This document shows positions 3,497 through 55,604 of a stretch of DNA of 64,000 bases, in pieces. The DNA comes from Candidatus Omnitrophota bacterium (lineage in GTDB: Bacteria; Omnitrophota; Gorgyraeia; Ghiorseimicrobiales; Ghiorseimicrobiaceae). Positions within the stretch are counted from its first letter, which is position 1; every line of letters starts with the position of its first letter. The stretch spans positions 159,207 to 223,206 of the forward strand of contig JAUXSB010000003.1 of NCBI GenBank assembly GCA_030681595.1, read 5' to 3'. Made by a program: the position numbers and the translations under genes. The notes below the pieces were generated by a model. It worked only from the letters and a program-made list of their open reading frames with translations, was not told where the DNA came from and did not search any database.

Positions 3497-3551
3497 GGCG
3501 CCGAAATACCTTATTTCGGCATCCACCATGCATTTCATTAATGAAATGCAT
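3497..3551 (-). terminator. Two adjacent hairpins immediately 3' of the tmRNA. One is the perfect 24-nt palindrome ATGCATTTCATTAATGAAATGCAT at 3528-3551; the other is GCCGAAATA..TATTTCGGC at 3497-3520. They are likely the tmRNA terminator or processing stems.
   Basis: Perfect inverted repeats abutting the CCA end of ssrA, just before the amidase start. Confidence 0.5.
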
Positions 3552-3971
3552 GGTGGAGGTGCGCGGAATCGAACCGCGGTCCCTAAGCATCGCAATATTA
3601 GCCTCTACATGTTTAGTTTTACCTTTTAATCTTGCCCAAAATTACTTCGGTAAACGGAATCAATCAAGGGCCAGCCTTTTACGGTTTTGCTCTAGCGCCA
3701 AAGGCAGAACGCTAAAGCTATCCTGCTTACGACGCCTGGCCCCACCCCACAGGCAGGGAGGGCAGACGGGTTACCGTATGAAGGGTAACGCTTGTGGAAC
3801 CATTGACATCACAGGCCTAACGACTTCAATAGAAGCCATCAGCTTGTTAAATGTCAATGTCTCTGCTGGTTTTTCAGCATTTGTGTTTTGCAAGGCTTTT
3901 TAACGAGGCCTGCCTTGCCACCCCGACATGCCACCAATACTACTTTGCCTAAGTCGAAACCTTTCACCCCC
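3551..3971 (-). ncRNA. ssrA: tmRNA (SsrA), one-piece. The tag-peptide reading frame could not be delimited with confidence.
   Basis: The reverse complement starts GGGGGUGAAAGGUUUCGAC... and ends ...GGUUCGAUUCCGCGCACCUCCACCA. This gives a tRNA-like T-arm and an acceptor stem with a G3-U pair (Ala identity). smpB lies 160 nt downstream. Confidence 0.85.
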
Positions 3972-4110
3972 TTAATGAATCCCGAAGCTTCGGGACGAAT
4001 TAATCCCGTTGAGTGTGTCAAAATTATAGACCCTCTGGAATTTCTTTGAAATTCCGAGGACTTAGTCCCTGAAATTGCTTCGCAATTTCTAGGGGCGAAA
4101 CGGGACAATT
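3972..4110 (-). repeat. Structured intergenic repeat, family 1, copy A. It contains the CCCGAAGCTTCGGG palindrome plus the GGAATTT..AAATTCC and GGACTTAGTCC hairpin modules.
   Basis: Shares about 40 nt (ccctctggaatttc..gaaattccgaggacttagtccc) with copy C at 22975-23020, and the CCCGAAGCTTCGGG hairpin with copies B and C. Confidence 0.7.
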
Positions 4111-4589: not shown

Positions 4590-5563
4590 TATGCGTTACT
4601 AATTACAGAAAACAGACTTAAGAATAAAGGTAAGGTAAAAATGCTGAATATATGCGTCCAGAAAATCCCCTGATTAATAAAATCCGCGTCTTTGGCTTTA
4701 TAATGCCGGCTGATCAACGAAAGAGAAGTTGCCGAAGGCACTGCCGCTTCTATAATAATCAATAATCCGATTAAGCCCTGCGGCTTAAACTTATAGATAA
4801 CAAACAAAGCTAAAGCCGGAACGAGTATTAATTTTGCCAGGAGAATATTAATTAAAACGCTTATTTTCATTGCCGCCCTGGAAAAATCTATCAAGGCAAG
4901 GCTTCCTCCTACTACCAACATCGCTAAGGGAATGGTGCATTCGCCGATTAATTTAAGCGGCCTAACTACCATATCCGGAATATATCCGCCTACCCCAAAA
5001 CCACTGAATAAAAGGCCGAGCAGTATTGCTACTACGACAGGGCTAAATAAACTTCCCAATTCAAATCCTTTTCTTTTGTGGCCGGAAAGTAAATATACGC
5101 CAAAAGACCAAACCAAAAGGTTAAACCCTAATAAAAATAAAAATAAATAAATTAAAAGTTCATCCGCGCGGTCTTTAGGCAGAAGTGTTGCCACTAAAGG
5201 AATTACCAGATAGCCTGAATTTTGAAAAGCCGAAAGCGCCAAAAATTCTCTTTTCTGGGGCAAAGACTTTAGGCCGATTTTAAGCAAAATAAAGCCTATA
5301 ATAAAGCCACAGAAATTAATAACCAGACTGATAAACGGAAAAACATACCAGTTAGGATAAAGCGAAAATTTAAATCTTAAAAGAAGCTGAGTAAAGACAA
5401 AAAGCGGAAGCGTTACCTCAACTACCAATTTACTGATTATATCTAACCCATTTGGACTGATAATGTTTCGCTTCAGGATTATAAACCCGATAAACCCCAA
5501 AATAAGTATTTCAAAGACCGCAAAACTCGTGCTTTTAAAAGAGGTTAAAAAAGCTTCTAACAT
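4589..5563 (-). CDS. Polytopic membrane permease, probably AEC (auxin-efflux-carrier / malate permease) family.
   Basis: About 10 predicted TM helices and an overall resemblance to AEC transporters. No diagnostic motif was verified. Confidence 0.45.
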   Translation of the reverse strand: MLEAFLTSFKSTSFAVFEILILGFIGFIILKRNIISPNGLDIISKLVVEVTLPLFVFTQLLLRFKFSLYPNWYVFPFISLVINFCGFIIGFILLKIGLKSLPQKREFLALSAFQNSGYLVIPLVATLLPKDRADELLIYLFLFLLGFNLLVWSFGVYLLSGHKRKGFELGSLFSPVVVAILLGLLFSGFGVGGYIPDMVVRPLKLIGECTIPLAMLVVGGSLALIDFSRAAMKISVLINILLAKLILVPALALFVIYKFKPQGLIGLLIIIEAAVPSATSLSLISRHYKAKDADFINQGIFWTHIFSIFTLPLFLSLFSVISNA

Positions 5564-6576: not shown

Positions 6577-6655
6577 AATAAGAAGTTATAAATTATAAAT
6601 TATGCGTTATAAGTTTAAAAACTCAAGAAACTCATCACTTATAACTTCTAACTCA
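6577..6655 (-). repeat. AT-rich heptad-periodic spacer element, family 3 (TTATAA-rich, containing AACTCATCACTT twice).
   Basis: Shares the AACTYATCACTT..TTATAA motifs with the leuB and leuC upstream spacers at 32645-32721 and 34681-34764. Confidence 0.55.
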
Positions 6656-8137: not shown

Positions 8138-8228
8138 TCTTGCCCCGTTAGAGATAGCCCCGAAACTTCGGGGCGTCTATCAAACCTGTGCCTTTTAAAA
8201 ATGCTCCTGCTTCCTAAATTTACTCTTA

Positions 8229-9092
8229 CTATAAAATAGTTTTCCCGTTATCTCTAACGGGGGTTCCTTTATAGCTAACAGTGATATGCCTTCCGTCTTC
8301 TAATTCTACGAGCGCCGTACCCTTTAAAGGATTAACGCTTAATACGCTGCCTTTTCCTTCAGGTAAAACGACTTTAGCGCCTTCTTGAGGAAGGCCGAGC
8401 GATAGGTCTTTGTAAGTCTTGTATTCATAGGATAAACAGCACATTAAGCGGCCGCATAAGCCGGAAATCTTCGGCGGGTTTAAAGGTAAATTCTGCTCTT
8501 TTGCCATCTTAATTGTAACCGGCTCAAATTCCTTTAAGAACTTGGCACAGCACAGCCCCCTTCCGCATGGGCCGAAGCCTCCGAAAATCTTTGCCTCATC
8601 CCGCACGCCGATCTGCCTGAGTTCGATACGCGTCTTAAATAAATGCGCCAAATCCTTAACTAATTCCCGAAAATCTACCCTGCCTTTTGCGGTAAAATAA
8701 AATATGAGCTTGGTGCGGTCAAAAGAATATTCCGCGTCCACCAGCTTCATATCTAATTTATGTTCTTCAATCTTTTTTGTGCAGGAAGAGAATACCTCTT
8801 TCGCTTTTTGTTTGTTTTGCTGAATTTGCTTTATATCCTGCGGCGTTGCCAAGCGTAAAACTTTCTTTATGCCGTCTTCTAACTTTTCCTTAGGCCTTTC
8901 CTTTAAATGTACAGGAAGACCCGCCCTTGCAGGACTAGAAAGTATTTCCGGATCAGTAACAACCTGGCCATAATCAATGCCCCTGTCCGCTTCTACAATC
9001 ACGTAATCATCGGCCTTAAGGGTAATTTTATCAAAAATAAAATACAGAGTCTGCCCTGCTTCCCGCAGGCGCACTTGCACTACGTTTTGCAT
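8229..9092 (-). CDS. ricT: PSP1 C-terminal domain protein (RicT/YaaT-like).
   Basis: Follows holB as in Bacillus (holB-yaaT). It has a PSP1-like core and Cys-rich segments. The gene ends with a TAG stop, which shows TAG is an ordinary stop in this genome. Confidence 0.7.
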   Translation of the reverse strand: MQNVVQVRLREAGQTLYFIFDKITLKADDYVIVEADRGIDYGQVVTDPEILSSPARAGLPVHLKERPKEKLEDGIKKVLRLATPQDIKQIQQNKQKAKEVFSSCTKKIEEHKLDMKLVDAEYSFDRTKLIFYFTAKGRVDFRELVKDLAHLFKTRIELRQIGVRDEAKIFGGFGPCGRGLCCAKFLKEFEPVTIKMAKEQNLPLNPPKISGLCGRLMCCLSYEYKTYKDLSLGLPQEGAKVVLPEGKGSVLSVNPLKGTALVELEDGRHITVSYKGTPVRDNGKTIL

Positions 9093-10752: not shown

Positions 10753-12122
10753 GTTGTGCCTTCTTTTGTATCTTCTAAAATTATGCCTTTTTGCTCTAAT
10801 TCCTTACGGATTTTATCGGAAAGGGCAAAATTTTTATTCGCGCGCGCGCTGTTTCTTTCTAATATTTTTGCTTCTATCTCAGTATCAAAAATTTCTTCTT
10901 TTTTTAAGGATATCTTGAATATACCCAATAGCTCCGACAATACGCGCTTGGCCGGCAAAATAAAATCCGTATTTTCTATATTCTTATTAGCGGCATTTAC
11001 CAAATCAAAGATTGCTGCCAGCCCCTGCGGTGTATTGAAATCATCATCCATCGCCTCGATAAATTTATTTTTAATTTCTTCTATTTCCGTATTTTTTTTA
11101 CTTGATACTTGATACTTGATACCTGATACCTTTTTTTCTATCTTATCAATCAATATCGCAATCCGCTCTAATGCCTTTTTCGCCTCTTCTATTTTTTCTT
11201 CCGTGTAGTCTATGGGATGCGAATAATGCGCCGATAAAAAGAATAATTTTAATAAATCCGCGTTTTTATATTTAGCGATAAAATCTTTAATGGTAATAAA
11301 ATTCCCCAACGACTTAGCCATTTTTTGAGCATTAATCGTCAAAAGGCCGTGGTGAATCCAATAATTAGAAAAAGGCTTACCAGTGAGCGCCTCTGCCTGG
11401 GCGAGCTCATTTTCATGGTGGGGGAAAATCAGGTCGCGCCCTCCGGCATGGATATCCAGCGTCTCGGACTTTAAAAACTTCTGACTCATCACCGAACACT
11501 CTATATGCCATCCGGGGCGGCCCTTGCCCCAAGGACTATCCCAGAATGGCTCATCAGGCTTAGACATCTTCCATAAAGCAAAATCCAACGGGTCTTTTTT
11601 GGTCTCATCCGATTCTTTACGTACACCGCTAAACATCTCTTTTATTGCCTGGCCGGATAATTTACCGTAATCATTAAATTTACGCACGCTGAAATATACG
11701 CCGGTTTCAGTAACATAGGCATACCCCTTATTTATCAAAACCTCAATGTATTTAATCATTTCAGGGATATTTTCCGTAGCGCGCGGCTCACAATCCGCTT
11801 CACTAATCCCTAAAGCCGCTAAATCTTCGTAATATCTGGAAATATATTTTTCCGACAACCCCTTCCAATCAACTTTAAGCTCCTTCGCGCGGTTAATAAT
11901 CTTATCGTCAATATCGGTAATATTGCGTACAAAGTTAACTTTAAAACCGCGGTATTCTAAATAACGCCGCATTAGGTCAAAGATATAAAGGCTTCGGGCG
12001 TGGCCAATATGGCAGTCATCATAAACAGTTACGCCACAGGTATAGATATTAACTTTTGGCGGGGATAGCGGAACAAATTTCTCTTTTTTACGGGTGAGGG
12101 AATTATAGATATAAATTGGCAT
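10734..12122 (-). CDS. cysS: Cysteinyl-tRNA synthetase.
   Basis: HIGH (HIGHARS) and KMSKS motifs. An in-frame heptamer array lies at 11098-11130. Confidence 0.9.
   Translation of the reverse strand: MPIYIYNSLTRKKEKFVPLSPPKVNIYTCGVTVYDDCHIGHARSLYIFDLMRRYLEYRGFKVNFVRNITDIDDKIINRAKELKVDWKGLSEKYISRYYEDLAALGISEADCEPRATENIPEMIKYIEVLINKGYAYVTETGVYFSVRKFNDYGKLSGQAIKEMFSGVRKESDETKKDPLDFALWKMSKPDEPFWDSPWGKGRPGWHIECSVMSQKFLKSETLDIHAGGRDLIFPHHENELAQAEALTGKPFSNYWIHHGLLTINAQKMAKSLGNFITIKDFIAKYKNADLLKLFFLSAHYSHPIDYTEEKIEEAKKALERIAILIDKIEKKVSGIKYQVSSKKNTEIEEIKNKFIEAMDDDFNTPQGLAAIFDLVNAANKNIENTDFILPAKRVLSELLGIFKISLKKEEIFDTEIEAKILERNSARANKNFALSDKIRKELEQKGIILEDTKEGTTWRRKI
11098..11130 (-). repeat. In-frame heptanucleotide tandem array (CTTGATA x3 + CCTGATA) inside cysS, flanked by poly-T runs. 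It encodes VSGIKYQVSS.
   Basis: Direct 7-nt periodicity is visible in the sequence. The same GATACTTG motif appears in the ispD duplication. Confidence 0.7.
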
Positions 12123-12126
12123 ATTA

Positions 12127-12166
12127 CTCGCTTCATGCTACAAGCTACAAGCTTCAAACCTGTAGC
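12127..12166 (-). repeat. Heptad-periodic leader element, family 2 (GCTTCAT GCTACAA GCTACAA GCTTCAA ... CCTGTAGCC), immediately upstream of the cysS start.
   Basis: Related to the element upstream of asd at 31511-31584, with shared gcttcatgc..caagcttcaa..cctgtagcc. Confidence 0.6.
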
Positions 12167-12170
12167 CATT

Positions 12171-13365: not shown

Positions 13366-14154
13366 TTACCGCTTAATCCCTGCCTGCCGGCAGGCAGGCT
13401 TAACCCTCTTTGCTATCACCTCTGCAAACACCAAATCTTCCGGAGTAGTAATTTTTATATTAAAATATGAGCCTTCGCAAACTCTAACTTTATAGCCTAA
13501 TTTTTCTACCAAATAGGCATCGTCAGTCGCATCCAAATTCTTAAATTTATTATGGGCTTTTATTATTAAGTCCCGCCTAAAAACCTGCGGCGTCTGTATC
13601 TCCCAGATATTTCTTCTATCTAAAGTTTTATCAACAAAAATATTCTTTTTCTCGATACTTGCCTGCCCCGAAGCATCCGGGGATACTTGCCTGCCCCGAA
13701 GCATCCGGGGATACTTGATACTTTTAATCGTTGGCTTTAGAGGAACCCCGGCAATACAGGCACCGCAATCCTGTGCGCCCGAAACTACGCGGGAAATAAT
13801 CTCGCCAGTCACAAACGGGCGCGCTGCGTCGTGAATTAAAACAAAGTCGGTATCTTTATCTAAAAGTTTTAAGCCTGCTGCAACCGAATCCCTGCGCGTC
13901 TTCCCGCCGCGCCTTACACACTTCACCTTAGAAAGCCCATCTGCTTCTATTAACCTTCTGACCTTCGCTAAATTCTTATTATGCGCAAGGACTATAATTT
14001 TAGAAATAGCCGCATTCCTGCTTAATACCCTTAACGCGCGAATAATAATCGCGCAATCGTCAATACGTACAAACGGTTTAGCAACAGCGGTTTTTAGCCT
14101 TACGCCCAAGCCGGCCGCAGGGACAATCGCTTCTATCTTTACAGGCTTAGGCAT
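13366..14154 (-). CDS. ispD: 2-C-methyl-D-erythritol 4-phosphate cytidylyltransferase.
   Basis: The VPAAGLGVRL N-terminus is IspD-like. It contains a 28-bp tandem duplication. Confidence 0.85.
   Translation of the reverse strand: MPKPVKIEAIVPAAGLGVRLKTAVAKPFVRIDDCAIIIRALRVLSRNAAISKIIVLAHNKNLAKVRRLIEADGLSKVKCVRRGGKTRRDSVAAGLKLLDKDTDFVLIHDAARPFVTGEIISRVVSGAQDCGACIAGVPLKPTIKSIKYPRMLRGRQVSPDASGQASIEKKNIFVDKTLDRRNIWEIQTPQVFRRDLIIKAHNKFKNLDATDDAYLVEKLGYKVRVCEGSYFNIKITTPEDLVFAEVIAKRVKPACRQAGIKR
13657..13712 (-). repeat. 28-bp tandem duplication (GATACTTGCCTGCCCCGAAGCATCCGGG x2) inside ispD. The ORF stays open across both copies, read in different frames.
   Basis: Exact direct repeat. The unit carries CCCCGAAGCATCCGGGG, a near-copy of the family-1 hairpin CCCCGAAGCTTCGGGG. 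Confidence 0.8.
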
Positions 14155-16578: not shown

Positions 16579-17298
16579 TTATTTTCCTGATTCTTCTTTG
16601 GGCCGGAACAATAACTTCCAAGGATGGGCTTTTAAATCATTTACAAAGCTGTCTAAGTCCTGATAAAGGCTGTCATCATATATAAGCTTACCAATCATAC
16701 CTTCGCCTTTATTTATCTTATCTAAAACTGTGTTTAGTTCCTGGCCTACCTGATTAAGATTACTCACTGCCTGTTTTAGAGAAAGCCGCAGTTCTTCGTC
16801 TTTAATGACTTTATTTAGGGAATCAATACTTTCTTCTAATTTCGTAGCAATCCGGCGGCCTAGGTTACCTATTTCCTCCATCGAGACAGGGTCATCCCCT
16901 AATAAAACATCGCCGTCCTTAAATAAAGTAGTATAATCGCTTCCCGGAATTACCTCTAGGTATTTTTCGCCTAAAAGGCCAAGGGTATTAATCATCACTT
17001 CGGAATCGCGGGGAATCTGAGTATCTTTCTTTACCCAAAAAGCTATTTCAACCCGCGTCTTCTTGGTTTGCGGGTCAAAATATACATTTATCTTCTTTAC
17101 TTCGCCTGCGTCAACACCCGCAACGCGCACCGGGGAATTTACTTTAAGCCCATTGGCAAACCCGAAGAAAACCTTAAGATTGTAACCGGTACTTAAAAGG
17201 CGGATGTCGCCGATTTTAGTAACAAAATATACCAAAATAACCAACGCCACAAAAACAAATATGCCTACCTTTGCTTCTATTCTTGTCCTTTGTGTCAC
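16579..17298 (-). CDS. mlaD: MCE-family protein MlaD.
   Basis: N-terminal TM segment and an MCE domain. Adjacent to mlaF and mlaE. Confidence 0.75.
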   Translation of the reverse strand: MTQRTRIEAKVGIFVFVALVILVYFVTKIGDIRLLSTGYNLKVFFGFANGLKVNSPVRVAGVDAGEVKKINVYFDPQTKKTRVEIAFWVKKDTQIPRDSEVMINTLGLLGEKYLEVIPGSDYTTLFKDGDVLLGDDPVSMEEIGNLGRRIATKLEESIDSLNKVIKDEELRLSLKQAVSNLNQVGQELNTVLDKINKGEGMIGKLIYDDSLYQDLDSFVNDLKAHPWKLLFRPKEESGK

Positions 17299-17316
17299 GC
17301 CCCACCCCCATTGTAA

Positions 17317-17344
17317 CGTATAGCGTATAGCGTATAGCGTATAG
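17317..17344. repeat. Heptamer tandem array (CGTATAG x4) in the mlaF-mlaD spacer.
   Basis: Exact 7-nt tandem repeat. The same heptamer recurs in-frame in truA at 29799-29828. Confidence 0.8.
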
Positions 17345-17375
17345 TAAAATCCCGATAAATATTCTAAACGCTATA

Positions 17376-17465
17376 CCATAAGCCGGTAAGGCAATGGTTT
17401 GGCTTTCCATATAGCCAAAGCCATAAGCCGGTAAGGCAATGGTTTGGCTTTCCATATAGCCAAAG
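17376..17465. repeat. 45-bp perfect direct repeat x2 (ccataagccggtaaggcaatggtttggctttccatatagccaaag), each with an internal GGCTTT..AAAGCC hairpin.
   Basis: Two identical tandem copies. A partial third copy follows. Confidence 0.85.
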
Positions 17466-17495: not shown

Positions 17496-18269
17496 TTACT
17501 TAAGGTGCCCAAACACCAAATGTTCCGTTTCAGTAATAGGCCCAACAGCCGCTCCGGTAATAAATTGTTTTACTACCGGGTTATGTGTATTTTTTATTTC
17601 CTCCGGAGTCCCCTCGGCAATGATTTTACCCTGATAAAGCATAGCCATGTGGTCGCCGACTTTATAAGCGCTAGTCATATCATGCGTTACTACTACCGAA
17701 GTTATTTTTAATTTTGCCTGTAATTCCCGGATAAGGTCATTTATGGCATCTGCGGTGATGGGGTCAACCCCTGTAGTCGGCTCGTCATAAAGAATAATCT
17801 GCGGCCGCATGCAGATTGCCCGCGCAAGAGCTACGCGCTTTTTCATCCCTCCGGATAATTCTGAAGGCATAAAATCCTCTATGGCATGCAGGCCCACCAA
17901 GCTTAGCGATTCTTTCACGCGTTCAGCAATAGTTGCCTCATCCAATTCTGTATGTTCGTTTAAAACAAAGGCTACATTTTCGGCAACGGTTAAAGAATCA
18001 AAAAGCGCCCCGCCCTGAAAAACCATGCCTATCTTCATGCGTACTTTATTTAATTCCTTCTCTTTAAGTTTACCTATCGCAACGCCATCAACCTTAATAA
18101 CCCCCGTATCCGGACGAATTAAACCCACGATATGTTTAAGCAAGACCGATTTCCCGCAGCCGGACCTACCGATAATCACCTTAGTCTTTCCCTTTTCTAT
18201 TTTAAGGCCTACGCCATCTAAAACCTTGTGGCTACTAAATGATTTATGTACGCCGATGATTTCTATCAT
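17496..18269 (-). CDS. mlaF: ABC transporter ATP-binding protein MlaF. The start is trimmed to MIEIIGVHKSF.
   Basis: Walker A GRSGCGKS, the LSGGMKKR signature and Walker B ILYDEPT. Confidence 0.85.
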   Translation of the reverse strand: MIEIIGVHKSFSSHKVLDGVGLKIEKGKTKVIIGRSGCGKSVLLKHIVGLIRPDTGVIKVDGVAIGKLKEKELNKVRMKIGMVFQGGALFDSLTVAENVAFVLNEHTELDEATIAERVKESLSLVGLHAIEDFMPSELSGGMKKRVALARAICMRPQIILYDEPTTGVDPITADAINDLIRELQAKLKITSVVVTHDMTSAYKVGDHMAMLYQGKIIAEGTPEEIKNTHNPVVKQFITGAAVGPITETEHLVFGHLK

Positions 18270-18375
18270 AATATCACTTATTACACTGATTTTAGCGGCA
18301 AAAATAATCTGTGTAATCGCTTTTTCCCGCATAGCGGGATCCCGCTTCAACTTAAATGGCTTTGGCAAATTGCGC

Positions 18376-18443
18376 GCCAAACCACTGCCTTCTGGCTTGT
18401 GGCTTTGGCTATATTGAAAGCCAAACCACTGCCTTCTGGCTTG
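18376..18443. repeat. 24-bp direct repeat x2 (GCCAAACCACTGCCTTCTGGCTTG) separated by a TGGCTTTGGCTATATTGAAAGCCA hairpin, in the mlaE-mlaF spacer.
   Basis: Exact repeats. The hairpin resembles the GGCTTT..AAAGCC module of the 17376-17465 repeat. Confidence 0.8.
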
Positions 18444-18476
18444 CAAGTAAGCGGGAAAAATCTGCGCAATCTGCGC

Positions 18477-19261: not shown

Positions 19262-21694
19262 TTATTTCGGCTCAAAAATAAGCTCATCTTTCTTACGCAG
19301 CACTTTGACGCTGCTTGCTCCTTTAATCTTTCCGGAAATAATTTCTTCCGCTAAAGGATCCTCCAGATAACGCTGGATTGTCCTTTTTAAAGGGCGTGCT
19401 CCGTACTGGATGTCAAAGCCCTTTTCAATCAGCAGCTCCTTTGCTTCGGAAGAGACATCAAGGGTAATCTTCTGTTCGGTAAGGCGCTTAGCTAATTCAT
19501 TAAGCTCAATCTCAATTATCCTGTGTAAATCTTCGCGCGCAAGAGACCTGAATACTATTATATCATCAATCCTGTTTAAAAATTCGGGTTTGAATATACG
19601 CTTGACTTCATCAAGAAGCTTATTCTTCATATCCTGATAAGTAACTTCTTCGCCCTGAGACTTAAAACCCAAGGAACCTTGTTTGCGTAAAATTTCAGTC
19701 CCTATGTTAGAAGTCATAATAATAATAGTATTCCTGAAATCGACCTTTCTGCCGAAGCTGTCGGTAAGGCGGCCGTCTTCAAAAACCTGAAGCAATAAAT
19801 TAAAAACATCCGGATGCGCTTTTTCAATTTCATCTAAAAGAATTACCGCATAAGGGCGGCGCCTTACTTTCTCGGTAAGCTGCCCTCCTTCTTCATAACC
19901 GACGTATCCTGGAGGCGCGCCGATCAGGCGCGAAACATTAAATTTTTCCATATATTCAGACATATCAATTTGAATTAAAGCATTTTCATCACCGAACATA
20001 AACTCGGTAATAGTACGGGCAAGGAGAGTCTTACCGACGCCGGTCGGCCCCAGAAAAATAAACGAACCAATGGGCCGGCGCGGATCCTTAATACCGGCGC
20101 GCGAACGCCGGATCGCCCGGGCAATAGATGTAATTACCTCCTCTTGCCCTACCACCCGCTCTTTAATTTTTCCTTCGATATGCATCAGGCGCTCCGACTC
20201 TTTTTCCTCAAGGCGAATAACCGGAATCCCTGTCCATTGCGAAACAATAGCGGCAATGCTTTCTGTGTTTATCTGCGGGCGCATCTGATCGCGCTCCTGG
20301 ATCCATTTTTTATTAAGATTTTCCAAGTCGGCCCTTACCTTCTTCTCCTCGTCTCTTAATGAGGCGGCCTTTTCAAAATCCTGCGAACGGACCAAACTTT
20401 CTTTCTCTTTCTTAAACTGCTCTAATTTCTGTTCTGAATCTTTTATTTCTTTCGGGGCGGTAAGTACTTTTAATCTTGCGTGCGAACCGGCCTCATCAAT
20501 TAAATCAATGGCTTTATCCGGCAAAAACCTGCCGGTGATATACCTATCTGAAAACTTCGCCGCCGCCTCTAAAGATTCATCAAGAAATTCAACGCGGTGG
20601 TGAGCTTCGTACCTGTCACGCAGGCCCCTTAAAATTTCAATAGTCTGCTCAACCGTAGGCGGCTCGACAAATATTGTCTGAAACCGCCTTTCCAGCGCCG
20701 CATCCTTTTCGATGTGTTTTCTATATTCACCCAAGGTCGTAGCACCTATACATTGTATTTCGCCCCGCGACAAAGCAGGCTTTAAAATACTGGCAGCATC
20801 AATTGCCCCTTCGGCAGCACCCGCTCCCACCAAAGTATGCAGTTCATCTATAAAAATAATTACCTCTTTAGAACGTTTAATTTCATCCATTACCGCCTTG
20901 ATTCTCTCTTCGAACTGGCCGCGGTATTTAGTGCCGGCAACCATCAAAGCCAGATCCAAAACAATAATTCTTTTATTATGTAAAACTTCGGGGACGTTTC
21001 CGCTGACTACCGCCTGTGCCAACCCTTCAACAATAGCTGTCTTTCCCACGCCGGCTTCGCCTAAGAGCACCGGATTATTCTTAGTGCGCCGGCTTAAAGT
21101 TTGAATAACGCGGTTAGTTTCATTCTTACGGTTGACCACCGGGTCTAATTTCCCTTCCTTGGCCAGAGCGGTTAAATCACGTCCAAAAGCATCCAAGGCC
21201 GGAGTTTTTGTCTTGGTCTCAGGCCCGCCGCTCACTCCAAAACCCGGAGTAGCAGAACCTAATATATCCATTATTTCCTGCCTGACCCTTTCCAAGTCCA
21301 GGCCTAAATTAATCAACACCTGAAAAGCCACGCCTTCACCGTCACGGATAAGGCCCAAAAGAATATGTTCCGTACCGATATAATTATGCCCCAAAGACCT
21401 TGCTTCCTCCGCGGAAAGCTCAAGTGCCTTCTTTGACCGGGGAGTAAAGGGAATATCGCCTAAAATCTGAGTTGTCGGCCCGGGTTTTACTAATTTTTCT
21501 ACCTCTATCCTTATCGTTTCAAGGCTTAAGCCCATCTTCTGCAGCACCGCCGCCGCCACCCCTTCACCTTCACGTATAAGGCCCAAAAGAATATGTTCCG
21601 TACCGATATAATCATGATTAAAACGCCTGGCTTCCTCTTTTGCCAGAATAATTACTTTTCTTGCCCTTTCAGTAAAACGATTAAACATTGCCAT
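19262..21694 (-). CDS. clpC: ATP-dependent Clp protease ATP-binding subunit ClpC. The start is trimmed to MAMFNRFTERARKV.
   Basis: Duplicated Clp_N repeats, two AAA+ modules (GEAGVGKT, GPTGVGKT) and a UVR motif. GAGGAG lies 8 nt upstream of the ATG. Confidence 0.9.
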   Translation of the reverse strand: MAMFNRFTERARKVIILAKEEARRFNHDYIGTEHILLGLIREGEGVAAAVLQKMGLSLETIRIEVEKLVKPGPTTQILGDIPFTPRSKKALELSAEEARSLGHNYIGTEHILLGLIRDGEGVAFQVLINLGLDLERVRQEIMDILGSATPGFGVSGGPETKTKTPALDAFGRDLTALAKEGKLDPVVNRKNETNRVIQTLSRRTKNNPVLLGEAGVGKTAIVEGLAQAVVSGNVPEVLHNKRIIVLDLALMVAGTKYRGQFEERIKAVMDEIKRSKEVIIFIDELHTLVGAGAAEGAIDAASILKPALSRGEIQCIGATTLGEYRKHIEKDAALERRFQTIFVEPPTVEQTIEILRGLRDRYEAHHRVEFLDESLEAAAKFSDRYITGRFLPDKAIDLIDEAGSHARLKVLTAPKEIKDSEQKLEQFKKEKESLVRSQDFEKAASLRDEEKKVRADLENLNKKWIQERDQMRPQINTESIAAIVSQWTGIPVIRLEEKESERLMHIEGKIKERVVGQEEVITSIARAIRRSRAGIKDPRRPIGSFIFLGPTGVGKTLLARTITEFMFGDENALIQIDMSEYMEKFNVSRLIGAPPGYVGYEEGGQLTEKVRRRPYAVILLDEIEKAHPDVFNLLLQVFEDGRLTDSFGRKVDFRNTIIIMTSNIGTEILRKQGSLGFKSQGEEVTYQDMKNKLLDEVKRIFKPEFLNRIDDIIVFRSLAREDLHRIIEIELNELAKRLTEQKITLDVSSEAKELLIEKGFDIQYGARPLKRTIQRYLEDPLAEEIISGKIKGASSVKVLRKKDELIFEPK

Positions 21695-21707
21695 TACTGT
21701 TCTCCTC

Positions 21708-21800
21708 AATGAGCCCCGAAGCTTCGGGGCGAATTGATCCCGATAACAACAAAAAAATTTGGAACAAATTTTGAAGTGCTTTGTTATCGGGACAATCAAC
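21708..21800 (-). repeat. Structured intergenic repeat, family 1, copy B, in the clpC 5' UTR. It has the CCCCGAAGCTTCGGGG hairpin, the CCCGATAACAA..TTGTTATCGGG stem, and the AAAATTTGGAACAAATTTT palindromic core followed by GAAGTGCT.
   Basis: The core and hairpin are shared with copies C and D. The element fills the whole mcsB-clpC spacer, from the stop to the SD. Confidence 0.75.
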
Positions 21801-21842: not shown

Positions 21843-22889
21843 TTATCCTAACCTGCTCCTGATTAATGCGGCGCGTTTAACATCGCGTTCTTGAGCCGAC
21901 AATTTTTTTGCCTCAATCTTCTGCAGGTGCGCCGGCTGAGTCAATATAAAAAGTTCATTTATCAACCTACGGTCAATATTTTTAATGATACCGAGGTCCT
22001 GTCCCAGCCTTAGCATTGAAAGCATTTCTATTGTTTCCGCGCTGTTGATAATATAGGCACTTTTTAAAATACCGAAGGCGCGGTAAATGCGGTCCTCTAA
22101 AATCTGGCGGTTATTCTGCATTAACGCGCTCCTTGCCATATTCTCCTGCTCAACAATCTGCCGGATTATAGCCTTGATATTCTCGATAATTTCTTCTTCA
22201 TTCTGCCCTAAAGATACTTGATTGGAAATCTGAAAAAAATTTCCGGCGGCCTGCGTTCCTTCACCGTAAAGCCCGCGGGTAGCAAAAGATAACTTGGTAA
22301 TTGCCGCCAAAACTTTATTTATCTGCTTAGTCATTACTAAAGCCGGCAAATGGAGCATTACCGAACCGCGCATTCCCGTCCCTACATTTGTCGGACAGGC
22401 TGTCAAATACCCTAATTCATCAGAAAAAGCAAACGGCAATCCTTTAGATAAAGAGGTGTCGATATTATTAATAATATTATTTGCTTCTGACAAATCAAGC
22501 CCGGATTTCATCACCTGTATACGCAGATGATCCTCCTCATTAACCATAATAGAGGCTATTTCTTCCTCGCTGATTACTACCGCTTTGTTTTCGGACTTAA
22601 GCGCATGCTCATGGCTCATCAAATGCCTCTCTACAAGAAACTGCTTATCTATATTGTCTAATTCGGAAAGTTTTAAATAAATACTCTTTTTTAAATACTC
22701 ATTTTCTCCTGCCGCCTTAAGCACAATCTCCATAGTACGCTCTCCCTGTTTTTTATTTGCCCAATGCGGGAAAGGCACTTTATCTAAGTTCCGGGCAAGC
22801 CTGATACGGCTTGAAATAACAATATCCGAATCAGGCCCGGTTCCTTTAAGCCATTCGGTAGTCTGTTTAAGCAGGTCGTTTAGCTGCAT
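21843..22889 (-). CDS. mcsB: Protein arginine kinase McsB (ATP:guanido phosphotransferase family).
   Basis: Phosphagen-kinase catalytic domain (C..TNVGTGMRGSV). Located between mcsA and clpC. Confidence 0.85.
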   Translation of the reverse strand: MQLNDLLKQTTEWLKGTGPDSDIVISSRIRLARNLDKVPFPHWANKKQGERTMEIVLKAAGENEYLKKSIYLKLSELDNIDKQFLVERHLMSHEHALKSENKAVVISEEEIASIMVNEEDHLRIQVMKSGLDLSEANNIINNIDTSLSKGLPFAFSDELGYLTACPTNVGTGMRGSVMLHLPALVMTKQINKVLAAITKLSFATRGLYGEGTQAAGNFFQISNQVSLGQNEEEIIENIKAIIRQIVEQENMARSALMQNNRQILEDRIYRAFGILKSAYIINSAETIEMLSMLRLGQDLGIIKNIDRRLINELFILTQPAHLQKIEAKKLSAQERDVKRAALIRSRLG

Positions 22890-22897
22890 ATCAAACT

Positions 22898-23075
22898 TCT
22901 CCTCAATGAGCGCATAATCCCGAAGCTTCGGGATTATTTGCGCGAATTGATGCCGAAAGCTACGAGAAAATTTGGAACCCTCTGGAATTTCACAAAGTGA
23001 AATTCCGAGGACTTAGTCCCGAGGAATTCTTTCGAATTCCTCGGGGCAAATTTTCAAGTGCTATGCTTTCGGTTT
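22898..23075 (-). repeat. Structured intergenic repeat, family 1, copy C, in the mcsB 5' UTR. It is the core with a roughly 70-nt hairpin-module insertion between GGAAC and CAAATTTT.
   Basis: gcgcataatCCCGAAGCTTCGGGattatttgcgc hairpin, GAAAATTTGGAAC...CAAATTTTCAAGTGCT core, and the inserted GGAATTTCAC..GTGAAATTCC / GGACTTAGTCC / GAGGAATTC..GAATTCCTC hairpins. Confidence 0.75.
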
Positions 23076-23101
23076 AACGTATTCCTCTATAAACCTCTTT
23101 A

Positions 23102-23620
23102 TTAAGTTTCTCCTTTTTTCTCTAACTCCTTAATCTTATCGCGCAGCTCTGCTGCCTTTTCAAATTCTTCCTTTTGGATAGCAGATTGCAATTGATTTTT
23201 TAATTCCTGAACCTGAGAAACCTTTGCCTTAACAACGGGCTTTACAGGAGATTCCTGCGGTTTGTTTACCGGCGACTTTCCGATATGATGGATTGAACCG
23301 TGTATTTTTTTCAATAAAGGCTTTAGATAAAGGCTAAAACTCTGATAACACTCGTTGCATCCTAGGCGCCCTACCTTTTTAAAATTTTCATAGGTCAGGC
23401 CGCAATTCGGGCACTTTGCGCCAGCCGATGTCTGGGGTTCTACCTGCCCGCCAAGATTGGATAGGCCTGCCAAGAGATCCGCTAAACCGAATTGCTGCTC
23501 CATCTCCATGCTTTTTGCCCGCGCGCAGTTCTCGCATAAATGCAGTTCTGCCATTTGGTCGTCAATAATCTCGGTCAAATGTACGGTCGCTACACTTTTT
23601 CCACATATATCACATAACAT
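23102..23620 (-). CDS. mcsA: McsA-like activator of protein arginine kinase (zinc-finger / UVR-motif protein).
   Basis: Two CxxC pairs (CDICGK..CENC and CPNCG..CNEC) and a C-terminal UVR-like coiled coil. Confidence 0.75.
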   Translation of the reverse strand: MLCDICGKSVATVHLTEIIDDQMAELHLCENCARAKSMEMEQQFGLADLLAGLSNLGGQVEPQTSAGAKCPNCGLTYENFKKVGRLGCNECYQSFSLYLKPLLKKIHGSIHHIGKSPVNKPQESPVKPVVKAKVSQVQELKNQLQSAIQKEEFEKAAELRDKIKELEKKGET

Positions 23621-31495: not shown

Positions 31496-31510
31496 ATAGT
31501 TCTTCTCAAT

Positions 31511-31584
31511 CCTGCTTCATGCTTCAAGCCGCAAGCTTCAAGCTTTAAACTTTTTTGCCTGTAGCCTACAACATGTAGCTTGCA
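31511..31584 (-). repeat. Heptad-periodic leader element, family 2 (GCTTCAT GCTTCAA GCCGCAA GCTTCAA GCTTTAA ... GCCTGTAGCCTACAACATGTAGCTTGC), upstream of asd.
   Basis: Shares its motifs with 12127-12166 and contains the palindrome GTAGCCTACAACATGTAGC. Confidence 0.6.
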
Positions 31585-31589
31585 GCAAA

Positions 31590-32639: not shown

Positions 32640-32644
32640 CTTCT

Positions 32645-32721
32645 CCTCACATTCCTTTTAGAATTTATAAGTTAGAGGTTATGAATTATAAATTAAAAAC
32701 TTATAACTTATCACTTATAAT
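32645..32721 (-). repeat. AT-rich heptad-periodic spacer, family 3, upstream of leuB (TTATAA-rich; AACTTATCACTT).
   Basis: Shared with 6577-6655 and 34681-34764. Confidence 0.55.
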
Positions 32722-34680: not shown

Positions 34681-34764
34681 GTAATATCTAAGTTAGAAGT
34701 TATGAATTATGAGTTACAAGTTATGAGTTAAAAACTAATAACTTATCACTTCTCATTCATAACT
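34681..34764 (-). repeat. AT-rich heptad-periodic spacer, family 3, upstream of leuC. It has six tandem TAACTYN heptads and can fold as a long imperfect hairpin.
   Basis: In the mRNA sense it reads TAACTCA TAACTTG TAACTCA TAATTCA TAACTTC TAACTTA, preceded by GTTATGA-type heptads complementary to them. Confidence 0.6.
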
Positions 34765-36338: not shown

Positions 36339-36492
36339 TTTTTTCCTCCTTAAATAACGCTACAGCCTACGCCATCCCGACAATCGTTCTGGCGATAGAT
36401 ATTAACAATGCAAGCTGCCCGTCGGGATTTAACCTTTGACACTCGAAATTCCCAATGTCAAAGATAAGTTTCCCCGCTTACGGCGGGGTCAC

Positions 36493-53019: not shown

Positions 53020-53117
53020 TTCTTTATAATTCTTTATTCCTATCCCGAAGCTACGGTCGGGATAAATTCCGGCACACAGGTTATGTCAACTACCGTTTCC
53101 ATAACCTGTGCCGTTAT

Positions 53118-55225: not shown

Positions 55226-55375
55226 TTATTTTTTACCCACTATCTTATACATCCCTGTGCCGCAGTCCGGGCATTTGCCCTTTACTGCTGGGCGGCCGTT
55301 CTTCATCGTTACTCTCTCTTCATTCTTCATATCTTTTTTGCCTTTGCACTTTACGCAATAGCCCTGTTCTGCCAT
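55226..55375 (-). CDS. Small 49-aa zinc-ribbon protein, MAEQGYCVKCKGKKDMKNEERVTMKNGRPAVKGKCPDCGTGMYKIVGKK. It is not in the supplied ORF track because it is under 60 aa, and resembles the DUF5679-like CxxC..CxxC family.
   Basis: ATG at 55373-55375 with GGAGGAG 8 nt upstream. Two CxxC pairs. It has its own terminator, and a family-1 element sits in its 5' UTR. Confidence 0.7.
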   Translation of the reverse strand: MAEQGYCVKCKGKKDMKNEERVTMKNGRPAVKGKCPDCGTGMYKIVGKK

Positions 55376-55389
55376 CTTAATCCTCCTCA

Positions 55390-55512
55390 ATGACGACACG
55401 AGTTATAAGATCCGCCGTAGGCGGAGACGTAACTCGCATGTCGGAATTGATACCGACAGCTACAAAGAAAATTTGGAACAAATTTTTGCAGTGTTTTGCT
55501 GTCGGTATATAC
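55390..55512 (-). repeat. Structured intergenic repeat, family 1, copy D, in the 5' UTR of the zinc-ribbon gene. It has the ATACCGACAGC..GCTGTCGGTAT stem, the GAAAATTTGGAACAAATTTTTGCAGTGTT core and a CCGCCGTAGGCGG hairpin.
   Basis: Core identical to copy B over AAAATTTGGAACAAATTTT. The architecture is hairpin, core, then SD. Confidence 0.7.
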
Positions 55513-55604
55513 TTTTACTAATCGCTATCTTTATAAATACGCCGGATTGCTGCTTAGAATAAATCTTTTTATTATTATACACCCTAAATTTATAAGGTCA
55601 ACGC

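Follow-up and report, generated by a model that had tools for sequence, protein, structure and literature searches.

The 64,000-nucleotide stretch of Candidatus Omnitrophota DNA analysed here (the window; GenBank assembly GCA_030681595.1, contig JAUXSB010000003.1, positions 159,207 to 223,206) contains four copies, A to D, of a modular hairpin element that occupies the spacers next to the transfer-messenger RNA (tmRNA) and ahead of clpC, mcsB and a zinc-ribbon gene, the same hosts that an initial annotation of the sequence had named. Read on the minus strand, in the sense of the genes, the copies run from a long hairpin (hairpin 1) through a GC hairpin to a Shine-Dalgarno (SD) sequence and start codon. 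Because the minus strand carries all of the genes in the window, this uniform orientation is uninformative when taken alone. The positions and order of parts given by the initial annotation are confirmed, and the strings shared by the copies lie far above chance: CCCGAAGCTTCGGG has three exact occurrences and one near-match in the window against 0.02 expected, the 19-nt core AAAATTTGGAACAAATTTT has two exact occurrences against 0.16 expected, and TCATTGAGGAG occurs exactly three times.

The most conserved part of the element had been overlooked. The GC hairpin is enclosed by a frame, ATCAATTCG..CTCATTGA, in which TCAAT pairs with ATTGA, and hairpin and frame together form a unit, here called H2, of the general form NN-AAT-TC-G-N-[CCCGA..TCGGG]-N'-C-TC-ATT-N'N'. 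From its base, H2 comprises an AU-rich helix of 5 bp, an internal TC/TC loop (2x2), a stem of GC pairs and an apex that varies, with AATTCG and CTCATT as its conserved flanks. The TC/TC loop is invariant; in copies selected by pattern it is fixed by the search itself, and it is also kept in copies A to D and in the related loci L003, L006 and L134 (L numbers designate such loci throughout).

Hairpin 1 is less uniform than the initial annotation had supposed. The conserved core that it assigned to every copy is present in B, C and D, and AAAATTTG-N3-CAAATTTT is a perfect palindrome in B and D, but copy A has no AAAATTTG core and its hairpin 1 belongs to a different type (type 2), homologues of which are intact in L009 and interrupted in L012. 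Likewise, the GC hairpin is a perfect palindrome where CCCGAAGCTTCGGG occurs, but copy D is without CCCGAAGCTTCGGG and has a long apical hairpin in the same frame; this apical insert is the reason why the covariance model R1 does not pick up the H2 of copy D, and H2 units of the same kind occur in L006, L012, L134 and L138. The claim that the loop of the copy C core holds an insert whose modules return in copy A was correct: the insert of roughly 65 nt recurs there. It constitutes a separate nested module (insertion module, IM; ~65 nt, two hairpins) that copies A and C, L012 (twice) and L066 carry in either orientation and at varied places within the unit; L012 also provides the IM-bearing homologue of the type-2 hairpin.

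Table. Coordinates of the hairpin elements and associated signals in the window
Feature	Position	Strand	Details
Copy A	3972-4110	-	smpB / tmRNA spacer; tmRNA (Rfam, ARAGORN) at 3551-3971
Copy A hairpin 1, type 2	4005..4104	-	P1 stem CCCGTT/AACGGG; fold z = -6.8
Copy A IM	4031-4095	-	placed after TCG; remnant of 3' arm of inner hairpin is TCTATAATTTTGACACACTCA
Copy A H2	3972..4004	-	compensated basal helix TTAAT/ATTAA; R1 match 56.7 bits
Copy B	21708-21800	-	mcsB / clpC spacer, 148 nt; host-gene annotation
Copy B hairpin 1, type 1	21739..21791	-	P1 stem CCCGATAAC/GTTATCGGG; fold z = -5.4; covariation with 7 homologous copies
Copy B inner hairpin	21754-21772	-	AAAATTTG-TTC-CAAATTTT; inside P1 together with AGCACTTC
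Copy B H2	21706..21738	-	A-TCAAT-TC-G-C-CCCGAAGCTTCGGG-G-C-TC-ATTGA; best match of covariance model R1, 60.7 bits, E = 1.4e-12
clpC SD GGAG	21702-21705	-	directly after copy B H2
clpC ATG	21692-21694	-	
Copy C	22898-23075	-	mcsA / mcsB spacer, 212 nt; host-gene annotation
Copy C hairpin 1, type 1	22953..23072	-	P1 stem CCGAAAGC/GCTTTCGG
Copy C IM	22978-23046	-	69 nt, two hairpins; in loop of AAAATTTG/CAAATTTT core
Copy C H2	22903..22951	-	apical stem lengthened, CGCAAATAAT-CCCGAAGCTTCGGG-ATTATGCG; R1 match 22.8 bits, E = 0.005
mcsB SD	22899-22902	-	after copy C H2
mcsB ATG	22887-22889	-	
Direct repeat, 13 nt, left copy	23101..23113	-	GGAGAAACTTAAT; flanks whole copy C insertion
Direct repeat, 13 nt, right copy	22890-22902	-	GGAGAAGTTTGAT; flanks whole copy C insertion
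Copy D	55390-55512	-	between CNNM/CBS gene and 49-aa DUF5679 zinc-ribbon gene
Copy D hairpin 1, type 1	55451..55508	-	stem ATACCGACAGC/GCTGTCGGTAT; core 55468-55486
Copy D H2	55387..55451	-	frame ATCAAT-TC-C...G-TC-ATTGA; long apical hairpin of ACTTACG..CGTAAGT module type
Copy D gene, SD GGAGG	55382-55386	-	
Copy D gene, ATG	55373-55375	-	
Sigma-70-like promoter candidate upstream of copy D	55574..55601	-	TTGACC..TATAAT; consensus match only; kept in relative L134
Hairpin E	8143..8262	-	CCCCGTTAGAGATA..TATCTCTAACGGGG around GC hairpin CCCCGAAGTTTCGGGG; PSP1 gene / metG spacer; without H2 frame
Degenerate relative F	53040..53113	-	long hairpin, GGAATTTA, then TCCCGACCGTAGCTTCGGGA; argS / recJ spacer

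Searches beyond the window reveal that H2 defines a sizeable family. Its strict pattern matches five loci among GTDB genomes, of which two Omnitrophota genomes contain four and a 'PVC group bacterium' the fifth, and a looser pattern, AATTCGNCCCGAN{2,8}TCGGGNYTCATT, matches at least 120 loci in JGI metagenomes. Among the matches listed, 74 unique copies resemble those of the window (class I) and consist of one or more variable hairpins, then H2, usually (A)GGAGG, and the start codon. Many copies are fuller units that start directly after the stop codon of the upstream gene and lead from GTGAGG through a hairpin CCACGACTTAYGG..CRTAAGTYG, a linker YCGAAYT and one or more hairpin 1 modules to H2. 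The hairpin 1 modules include the type described by the initial annotation, a TTGACAT palindrome type and a ATCAAAATT-TTCTTCGAT-AATTTTGAT type. Tandem copies occur, and the ribH-nusB spacer holds H2 alone, GTGAGG with H2, or the full unit in three different genomes. The looser H2 pattern has no match in viral contigs, and BLAST finds none for copy B in plasmids or for copy C in phages. Rfam 15, applied to the whole window at gathering thresholds, recognises the tmRNA and two tRNAs only; copies B, C and D give chance microRNA and small nucleolar RNA matches far under threshold at E <= 10, twenty related loci give tRNAs only, and a full-text literature search found no description of this repeat family. 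L017, L042, L082, L084 and L126 each have a tRNA, then a class I element and a conserved AAGTCCAGACGTCCCAG, beyond which the contigs share no sequence, an arrangement that may mark an integration hot spot beside the tRNA.

The compensatory stem changes reported by the initial annotation are borne out by this larger sample. In the alignment of H2 from 69 class I copies, 94.9% of cells are paired, against 24-48% in slid controls, and the covariation score, judged at the positions that the search pattern leaves free, is reached by none of 500 shuffles. The outer basal pair (columns 6-39) is UA in 34 copies, AU in 12 and CG in 12, the closing pair (columns 13-32) is CG in 36, UA in 21 and UG in 7, and the apical pair is CG in 42 and AU in 15. 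Type-1 hairpin 1 behaves in the same way across eight sequences, with 97% of cells paired, five pairs changed on both sides and a score that none of 500 shuffles attains. Fold z-scores lie between -5.4 and -7.5. These data are proof of a selected hairpin, and the initial inference of a structure rather than a protein operator was right to that extent; its choice of RNA is another matter, as covariation does not separate RNA from single-stranded DNA when both strands are equally foldable and the counts of G-T versus A-C mismatches (21 vs 14 in H2, 4 vs 3 in hairpin 1) are uninformative. A strong G-T/A-C bias does appear in a second class of copies, from Chitinophagaceae, where it is probably the consensus of one subfamily.

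This second class (class II) comprises 44 unique copies among the matches listed (L016-L133, for instance L048:3950-4020), all on Chitinophagaceae-like contigs, one of them upstream of dnaN on a Chitinophagaceae contig of 1.98 Mb. It has the same 28-nt H2 core, always antisense to co-directional flanking genes. The unit has H2 at one end and a flanking gene's start codon at the other: this codon appears as CAT on the H2 strand within the 5' arm of the first hairpin, and all such genes begin ATGAA. About ten copies have the stop codon of the gene on the other side at a distance of 0-8 nt from the foot of H2. TTCAT stands at both ends of the unit, with its complement 5' of H2, and the class has no match in Rfam. 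A Y1_Tnp gene (IS200-like or RAYT-like, that is, resembling the transposases of the IS200 insertion sequence (IS) or the tyrosine transposases associated with repetitive extragenic palindromes (REPs)) lies ~860 nt from a class II element at L087:941-1375 and is seen also in L109; the L087 gene is flanked by hairpins of its own, GGGCT-N3-AGCCC, which appear unrelated to H2.

Class I copies are placed against translation signals with near-nucleotide regularity. A same-strand start codon follows CTCATT at 2-22 nt in 54 of the 74 copies (mode 13 nt), and in 47 the first base of an SD-like tetramer comes 0-5 nt behind CTCATT, a distance that is 0-2 nt in 39. About ten copies dispense with the SD and have the AUG 0-4 nt from the H2 foot, as at nusB (three genomes), the L14 gene, rpmB in L138, radA in L006 and mcsB in L003. 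The SD sequences at the B and C sites are also present in relatives without the element and so look host-derived. Within the window, 28 of 50 open reading frames (ORFs) with an ATG start have an SD-like tetramer, and the gene starts at 5563, 10114, 27991 and 44272 (-) have no SD and a TATAAT 5-10 nt before the ATG, which suggests leaderless mRNAs. About 80% of units are in gene-sense orientation and about 15-20% are antisense; among roughly 70 class I copies, about 13 are antisense to co-directional neighbours, and in at least L031, L057, L075 and L085 the stop codon of the neighbour overlaps the H2 foot. The copy upstream of rpmB in L138 is on the minus strand like rpmB itself, with argS, recJ and uvrD on the plus strand, so that orientation follows the gene there.

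Good sigma-70-like promoters upstream of copy D and of the L138 copy would place both in 5' untranslated regions (UTRs). Inside copies B and C, promoter and terminator consensus scans stay at chance level. Two other promoter candidates were rejected: TTGACA, present in some hairpin 1 stems 17 nt from TCAATT, loses this spacing in longer variants, and a sigma-54 candidate on the plus strand, TTGGAAC-N4-TTGA, points away from all genes and has a loop that flips between TTC and GAA among copies (L123). At copy A, the last base of H2 (3972) adjoins tmRNA position +1 (3971). A promoter-like TTCAAA-16-TATAAT at 4023-4050 (-), which extends from the 3' end of the IM into the remnant and is a consensus match only, could drive transcription of the tmRNA. 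The tag peptide that ARAGORN assigns to this tmRNA, VTLHTVTRLPSLPVGWGQAS, is unusual and does not have the ..LAA ending; the resume codon may be mis-called.

A metagenome-assembled genome of Candidatus Omnitrophota encodes proteins 100% identical to the McsB and ArgS of the window, and a contig of the same strain, L136, contributes nothing further. Comparison with relatives shows rapid turnover of the element at orthologous sites. In L001 (McsB 95%), mcsA and mcsB are 1 nt apart with no element, and the 97-nt mcsB-clpC spacer holds an unrelated AT-rich hairpin. In L003 (McsB 89%), the mcsA-mcsB spacer has the same H2 with a wholly different hairpin 1, the mcsB AUG lies 1 nt past the H2 foot without an SD, and the mcsB-clpC spacer is 20 nt. 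In L006 (McsB 80%), mcsA and mcsB overlap and the mcsB-clpC spacer is without an element, which is thus missing between mcsB and clpC in all three relatives; L006 has full copies, AAAAATTTGTTCCAAATTTTT core included, at two other spacers. The D site in L134 (ArgS 90%) keeps the promoter and the frame AATTCC[hairpin]TCATTGA-AGGAGG with every hairpin module different, and in a 64% ArgS relative it is a 54-nt spacer only. Overall, filled sites with empty or rebuilt orthologues are found at mcsA-mcsB, mcsB-clpC, D and F (against L001, L003, L006, L134 and L137), and the flanking genes are syntenic core genes whose order is conserved across relatives.

Signs of a defined transposition mechanism are sparser. 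The whole copy C insertion is flanked by 13-nt direct repeats, and the empty site in L001 has GGAGAAATTTGAT once. The repeats look like a target duplication, although precise loss by recombination would leave the same pattern. Direct repeats of 13 nt also flank a copy in L051, but over 39 copies the signal of flanking repeats is weak (mean score 4.54 vs a null of 4.25; a score of 7 in 4 of 39 copies vs 2.6% expected). The units have no clear terminal inverted repeats: the left end (GTGAGG or variable) is not an inverted copy of the right end (CTCATTNN), and such inverted repeats as they contain are the internal hairpins. No parent IS is seen in the fetched loci, and tblastn with Y1 sequences as queries, a weak test run on ~0.9 Mb of Omnitrophota loci and not on whole genomes, found no Y1 transposase or RAYT. 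A match between left-flank and right-end pentamers in the manner of IS200/IS605 was tried and rejected, as it fits copies A and B (GTTAA/ATTAA and GTTGA/ATTGA) and not C, D, L009 or L013.

These observations show that the copies belong to a dispersed modular repeat family and are not a conserved gene-specific regulator of mcsB, clpC or ssrA. The conclusion follows from turnover of sites within 5-10% protein divergence, the nesting of modules, tandem copies, both orientations and a core that crosses phyla. Presence/absence polymorphism and the antisense minority, together with the nesting, the tandem copies and the core in another phylum, also make a repeat of the REP type, or of the type of the miniature transposable elements with inverted repeats (MITEs), with a preference for operon spacers, a much better fit than a regulator, as the initial annotation had allowed. 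Nor do the copies look like a plain MITE as the initial annotation defined it (random positions and orientations, terminal inverted repeats, target-site duplications): position and orientation are strongly biased to the 5' edge of the ribosome-binding site (RBS), covariation is strong, and flanking repeats are found only at some sites. Being gained, lost and rebuilt at 5-10% protein divergence, the units appear to behave as semi-mobile or recombining repeat DNA, judging mobility from their distribution, and a DNA-level mechanism in the style of REP/RAYT, of IS200/IS605 with palindrome-associated transposable elements (PATE), or of integron attC sites may underlie their spread. On balance, we regard it as probable, though far from assured, that they form a previously undescribed family of modular hairpin intergenic repeats in Candidatus Omnitrophota, comparable to REP2, BOX and bacterial interspersed mosaic elements (BIMEs), co-transcribed just upstream of the RBS and with a generic effect at the RNA level. 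Units of this kind would sit in transcribed spacers, inside operons or in 5' UTRs, and be co-transcribed with the downstream gene. The SD, single-stranded beside a stable helix, would be insulated; the long duplex of hairpin 1 would offer a plausible cut site for a double-strand-specific RNase, and after such a cut H2 would stay on the downstream cistron as a 5'-proximal protective stem-loop. Any effect of the RNA would probably be generic (insulation, processing, stability); the inference of gene-specific regulation was wrong.

Several points weigh against this account. In the loci searched, the units were accompanied by neither a transposase nor clear terminal inverted repeats nor a target-site duplication of consistent form, and the selected strand is not shown by the equal folding of both strands or by 21 vs 14 mismatches. 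Such close placement against the SD or AUG would not be expected of a neutral selfish insertion, and highly expressed essential genes (EF-Tu, GroES, RecA, SSB, ribosomal proteins) give the impression of being frequent downstream. That three diverged genomes have all kept H2 at ribH-nusB is a sign of a selected function, and the conserved TC/TC loop implies recognition by a specific factor. Tight foot-to-SD/AUG spacing, sense bias, the invariant internal loop and the persistence of H2 at ribH-nusB argue that the family is not merely tolerated junk.

What, then, might the hairpins do for the genes beside them? The initial annotation had proposed a cis-regulatory RNA tied to proteostasis and ribosome rescue, and a dedicated thermometer or stress leader for a McsB/ClpC/tmRNA regulon, replacing a missing CtsR, would agree with three of the four window copies preceding mcsB, clpC and the tmRNA. 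It would also agree with the absence of regulatory boxes from the window, where matches to the CtsR box (direct repeat RGTCAAANANRGTCAAA) are at chance level with none near mcsA or clpC, and CIRCE (TTAGCACTC-N9-GAGTGCTAA) does not occur. Further heat-shock and quality-control hosts, which the initial annotation proposed to look for, do exist, as some metagenome copies precede hrcA, groES and clpP, but most downstream genes have no relation to proteostasis. Besides HrcA, ClpP and GroES they encode RecA, EF-Tu, SSB, L19, L14, L28, NusB and RuvA, and, called from N-terminal sequence alone, response regulators, IlvE, IlvD, a pilin, GvpA, a glutaredoxin and others. The groES and hrcA copies, moreover, adjoin ordinary CIRCE, a separate module that already accounts for heat-shock control: CIRCE-like TTAGCACTT-N9-GAGTGCTAA stands directly before H2 upstream of groES in L107, and TTAGCATTC-N9-GAGTGCTAA farther upstream of H2 ahead of hrcA in L014, so these Omnitrophota-like genomes appear to use HrcA/CIRCE. 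(L107 has another H2-like match just after groES, at 1053-1108.) The orthologous mcsB and clpC leaders of the McsB 95, 89 and 80% relatives, as described above, have either no element or a differently built one. Nor is the proposed thermosensor with an occluded SD supported by folding. The basal helix takes in only the GA before GGAG, and partition-function folding of copies B, C and D predicts an SD that is mostly unpaired (probability 0.55-0.79) and whose accessibility barely changes from 20 to 55 C, for which reason an RNA thermometer of the ROSE or fourU type was rejected. The distribution of the family largely refutes a proteostasis regulator, which we consider very improbable. Even harder to credit is the idea that a dimeric transcription factor uses the palindromes as operators in double-stranded DNA. 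The perfect palindrome of copies B and D would suit one, but in copy C the half-sites are 69 nt apart with the stem still kept, half-sites change with compensation from G:C to A:T, copy A and most family members are without the core, and the elements lie downstream of promoters or inside operons.

Two further explanations take the regularity of H2 itself as their starting point. H2 could be an RNA punctuation signal, at whose 3' foot a dedicated endoribonuclease cuts polycistronic transcripts apart, in the manner of Cas6/Csy4 at the CRISPR repeat or of RNase Z behind a tRNA; RNA downstream of the cut would have its SD, a leaderless AUG or tmRNA +1 as its exact beginning, and the hairpins would be 3' protectors of the upstream fragment. 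A single cut at the foot would unify these three contexts, and it is the foot-to-signal distances that recommend it: the SD within 0-2 nt in 39 of 74 copies, the AUG within 0-4 nt in the SD-less ones, and, in copy A, a foot that adjoins tmRNA +1. Leaderless mRNAs, which this genome seems to use, and an internal loop that stays invariant while the helices covary speak in the same direction. However, close relatives do without the element at these genes, SD-less genes are common in this genome anyway, and the 5' end of tmRNA is normally produced by RNase P alone, with no need of help. A sequence-specific RNA signal would also fail in antisense copies (15-20% of class I and all of Chitinophagaceae), and no candidate nuclease was identified. 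We hold punctuation by cleavage to be unlikely, though not negligible, and give a little less credence to the wider proposal that an undescribed operon-punctuation system, widespread in Omnitrophota, recognises its cut sites by H2, with the modules spreading by virtue of the useful signal they carry. Alternatively, selection may act on single-stranded DNA, with the folded hairpins recognised by an HUH/Y1 transposase (REP/RAYT, IS200/IS605-PATE) or, in attC style, by a tyrosine recombinase; the basal helix would be the pairing of guide and cleavage site, and the RNA structure a by-product. The layout of H2 is attC- or REP-like, with a basal and a second helix on either side of an unpaired 2x2 centre and an apex free to vary; the two strands fold equally well and both orientations occur, the core is common to two phyla, and nesting, tandem copies, the direct repeats at copy C and L051 and the repeated TTCAT of the Chitinophagaceae class, with its complement, can all be fitted to such an element. 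Yet the weak tblastn test showed no Y1 transposase near Omnitrophota copies, the sole Y1_Tnp gene (L087) has different hairpins (GGGCT..AGCCC), flanking repeats are no general feature, the L138 copy is oriented with its gene, and the flanking genes are syntenic core genes rather than cassettes. This explanation, too, is doubtful in our estimate.

Related and unrelated repeats occur elsewhere in the window. Copies A to D have two degenerate relatives, E and F (Table), and H2-less related modules lie upstream of acpP at about 36340-36492. Element F is remodelled in L134 with the GGAATTTATCC backbone in common. The stem CCCCGTTAGAGAT..ATCTCTAACGGGG of hairpin E is also found in the 64% ArgS relative at a different locus (argS-recJ, L137:11650-11780) and is a second repeat family. 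A weak H2-like match of R1 at 18090-18126 (-), in a coding region (17.6 bits, E about 0.1), is probably due to chance. Many other spacers contain AT-rich 7-nt periodic repeats (TATACGC four times; AAGTTAT/ATAACTT arms) that form long imperfect hairpins, at 6577-6655, 11098-11128, 12123-12170, 17299-17357, 31496-31589, 32640-32721 and 34681-34764, and similar ones are present at the mcsB-clpC spacer of L001 and L006. Perfect tandem duplications of 45 nt (17376-17465, between ORFs 17496..18446 and 16579..17298) and of 28 nt (13654-13709, within ORF 13366-14154) complete the inventory.

To our knowledge, the Omnitrophota are without a cultured model organism, and their post-transcriptional organisation is undescribed. 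Against this background, a modular repeat family that is abundant (at least 120 loci), backed by covariation, absent from Rfam and placed to near-nucleotide precision against translation signals is a concrete target for metatranscriptomic 5'-end mapping, and the model R1 is ready for annotating Omnitrophota genomes. Were a punctuation system to exist, it would be a bacterial counterpart, working on housekeeping operons, of mitochondrial tRNA punctuation or Cas6 processing. The H2 core in Chitinophagaceae, always antisense and in units that span exactly from stop to start codon, is a link across phyla that deserves attention. The family also serves as a caution that gene-specific regulation is easily over-read from repeats in one window.

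Among known systems, the intercistronic RNase III sites of phage T7 and the engineered Csy4 and RiboJ insulators are functional analogues only: they too put a stable hairpin directly upstream of each RBS, but their sequences are unrelated, and the elements described here are dispersed repeats of a cellular genome known from sequence alone. Integron attC sites resemble H2 in the folded strand, where a basal and a second helix flank an unpaired central spacer and lead to a variable terminal structure, and also in position, as they lie between ORFs of one orientation, the 3' foot close ahead of the following ORF. They differ in their triplets (AAC/GTT rather than the AAT/ATT of H2) and in their extrahelical (bulged) bases, which H2 does not have, and the flanks here are syntenic housekeeping genes, not cassettes, with no integrase seen in the loci. 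Pneumococcal BOX elements and the BIMEs of E. coli, which are mosaics of REP units, consist of short hairpin units in variable number and order, operon-internal and transcribed with their neighbours. The Omnitrophota family resembles them as a modular mosaic of short hairpins whose modules vary in number and order, but BOX and BIME units are not fixed against the SD, BIMEs are mostly 3' of genes, and the sequences are unrelated; REPs, in addition, have a cognate RAYT, and none was found here by the weak tblastn test.

The hairpins of Correia elements are co-transcribed, and reports describe them as substrates of RNase III with effects on the expression of neighbouring genes. These elements are classed as MITEs (PMC3184786). 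Long RNA hairpins, and co-transcription if our reading of the spacers is right, are common to both families; the 26-bp terminal inverted repeats, TA duplication, integration host factor (IHF) site and internal promoters of Correia elements are not seen in the family described here. Closer still are the REP2 repeats of Neisseria and the inverted repeat (IR) of Borrelia plasmids, which form two stem-loops and lie immediately upstream of many ORFs beside the RBS (Delihas 2011, PMC3184786). REP2 (CREN) and the Borrelia IR are likewise dispersed repeats of ~120-150 bp without terminal inverted repeats, with two internal stem-loops, upstream of unrelated ORFs. REP2, unlike the present elements, carries its own promoter, RBS and ATG, where copies B and C have no sigma-70 consensus inside, and the family here has exchangeable modules, does not resemble REP2 in sequence and is not linked to a regulon. 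By analogy of structure and placement, Neisseria REP2 and the Borrelia IR would seem to be the nearest described relatives in kind, with the modular mosaics of BOX and BIME also close.

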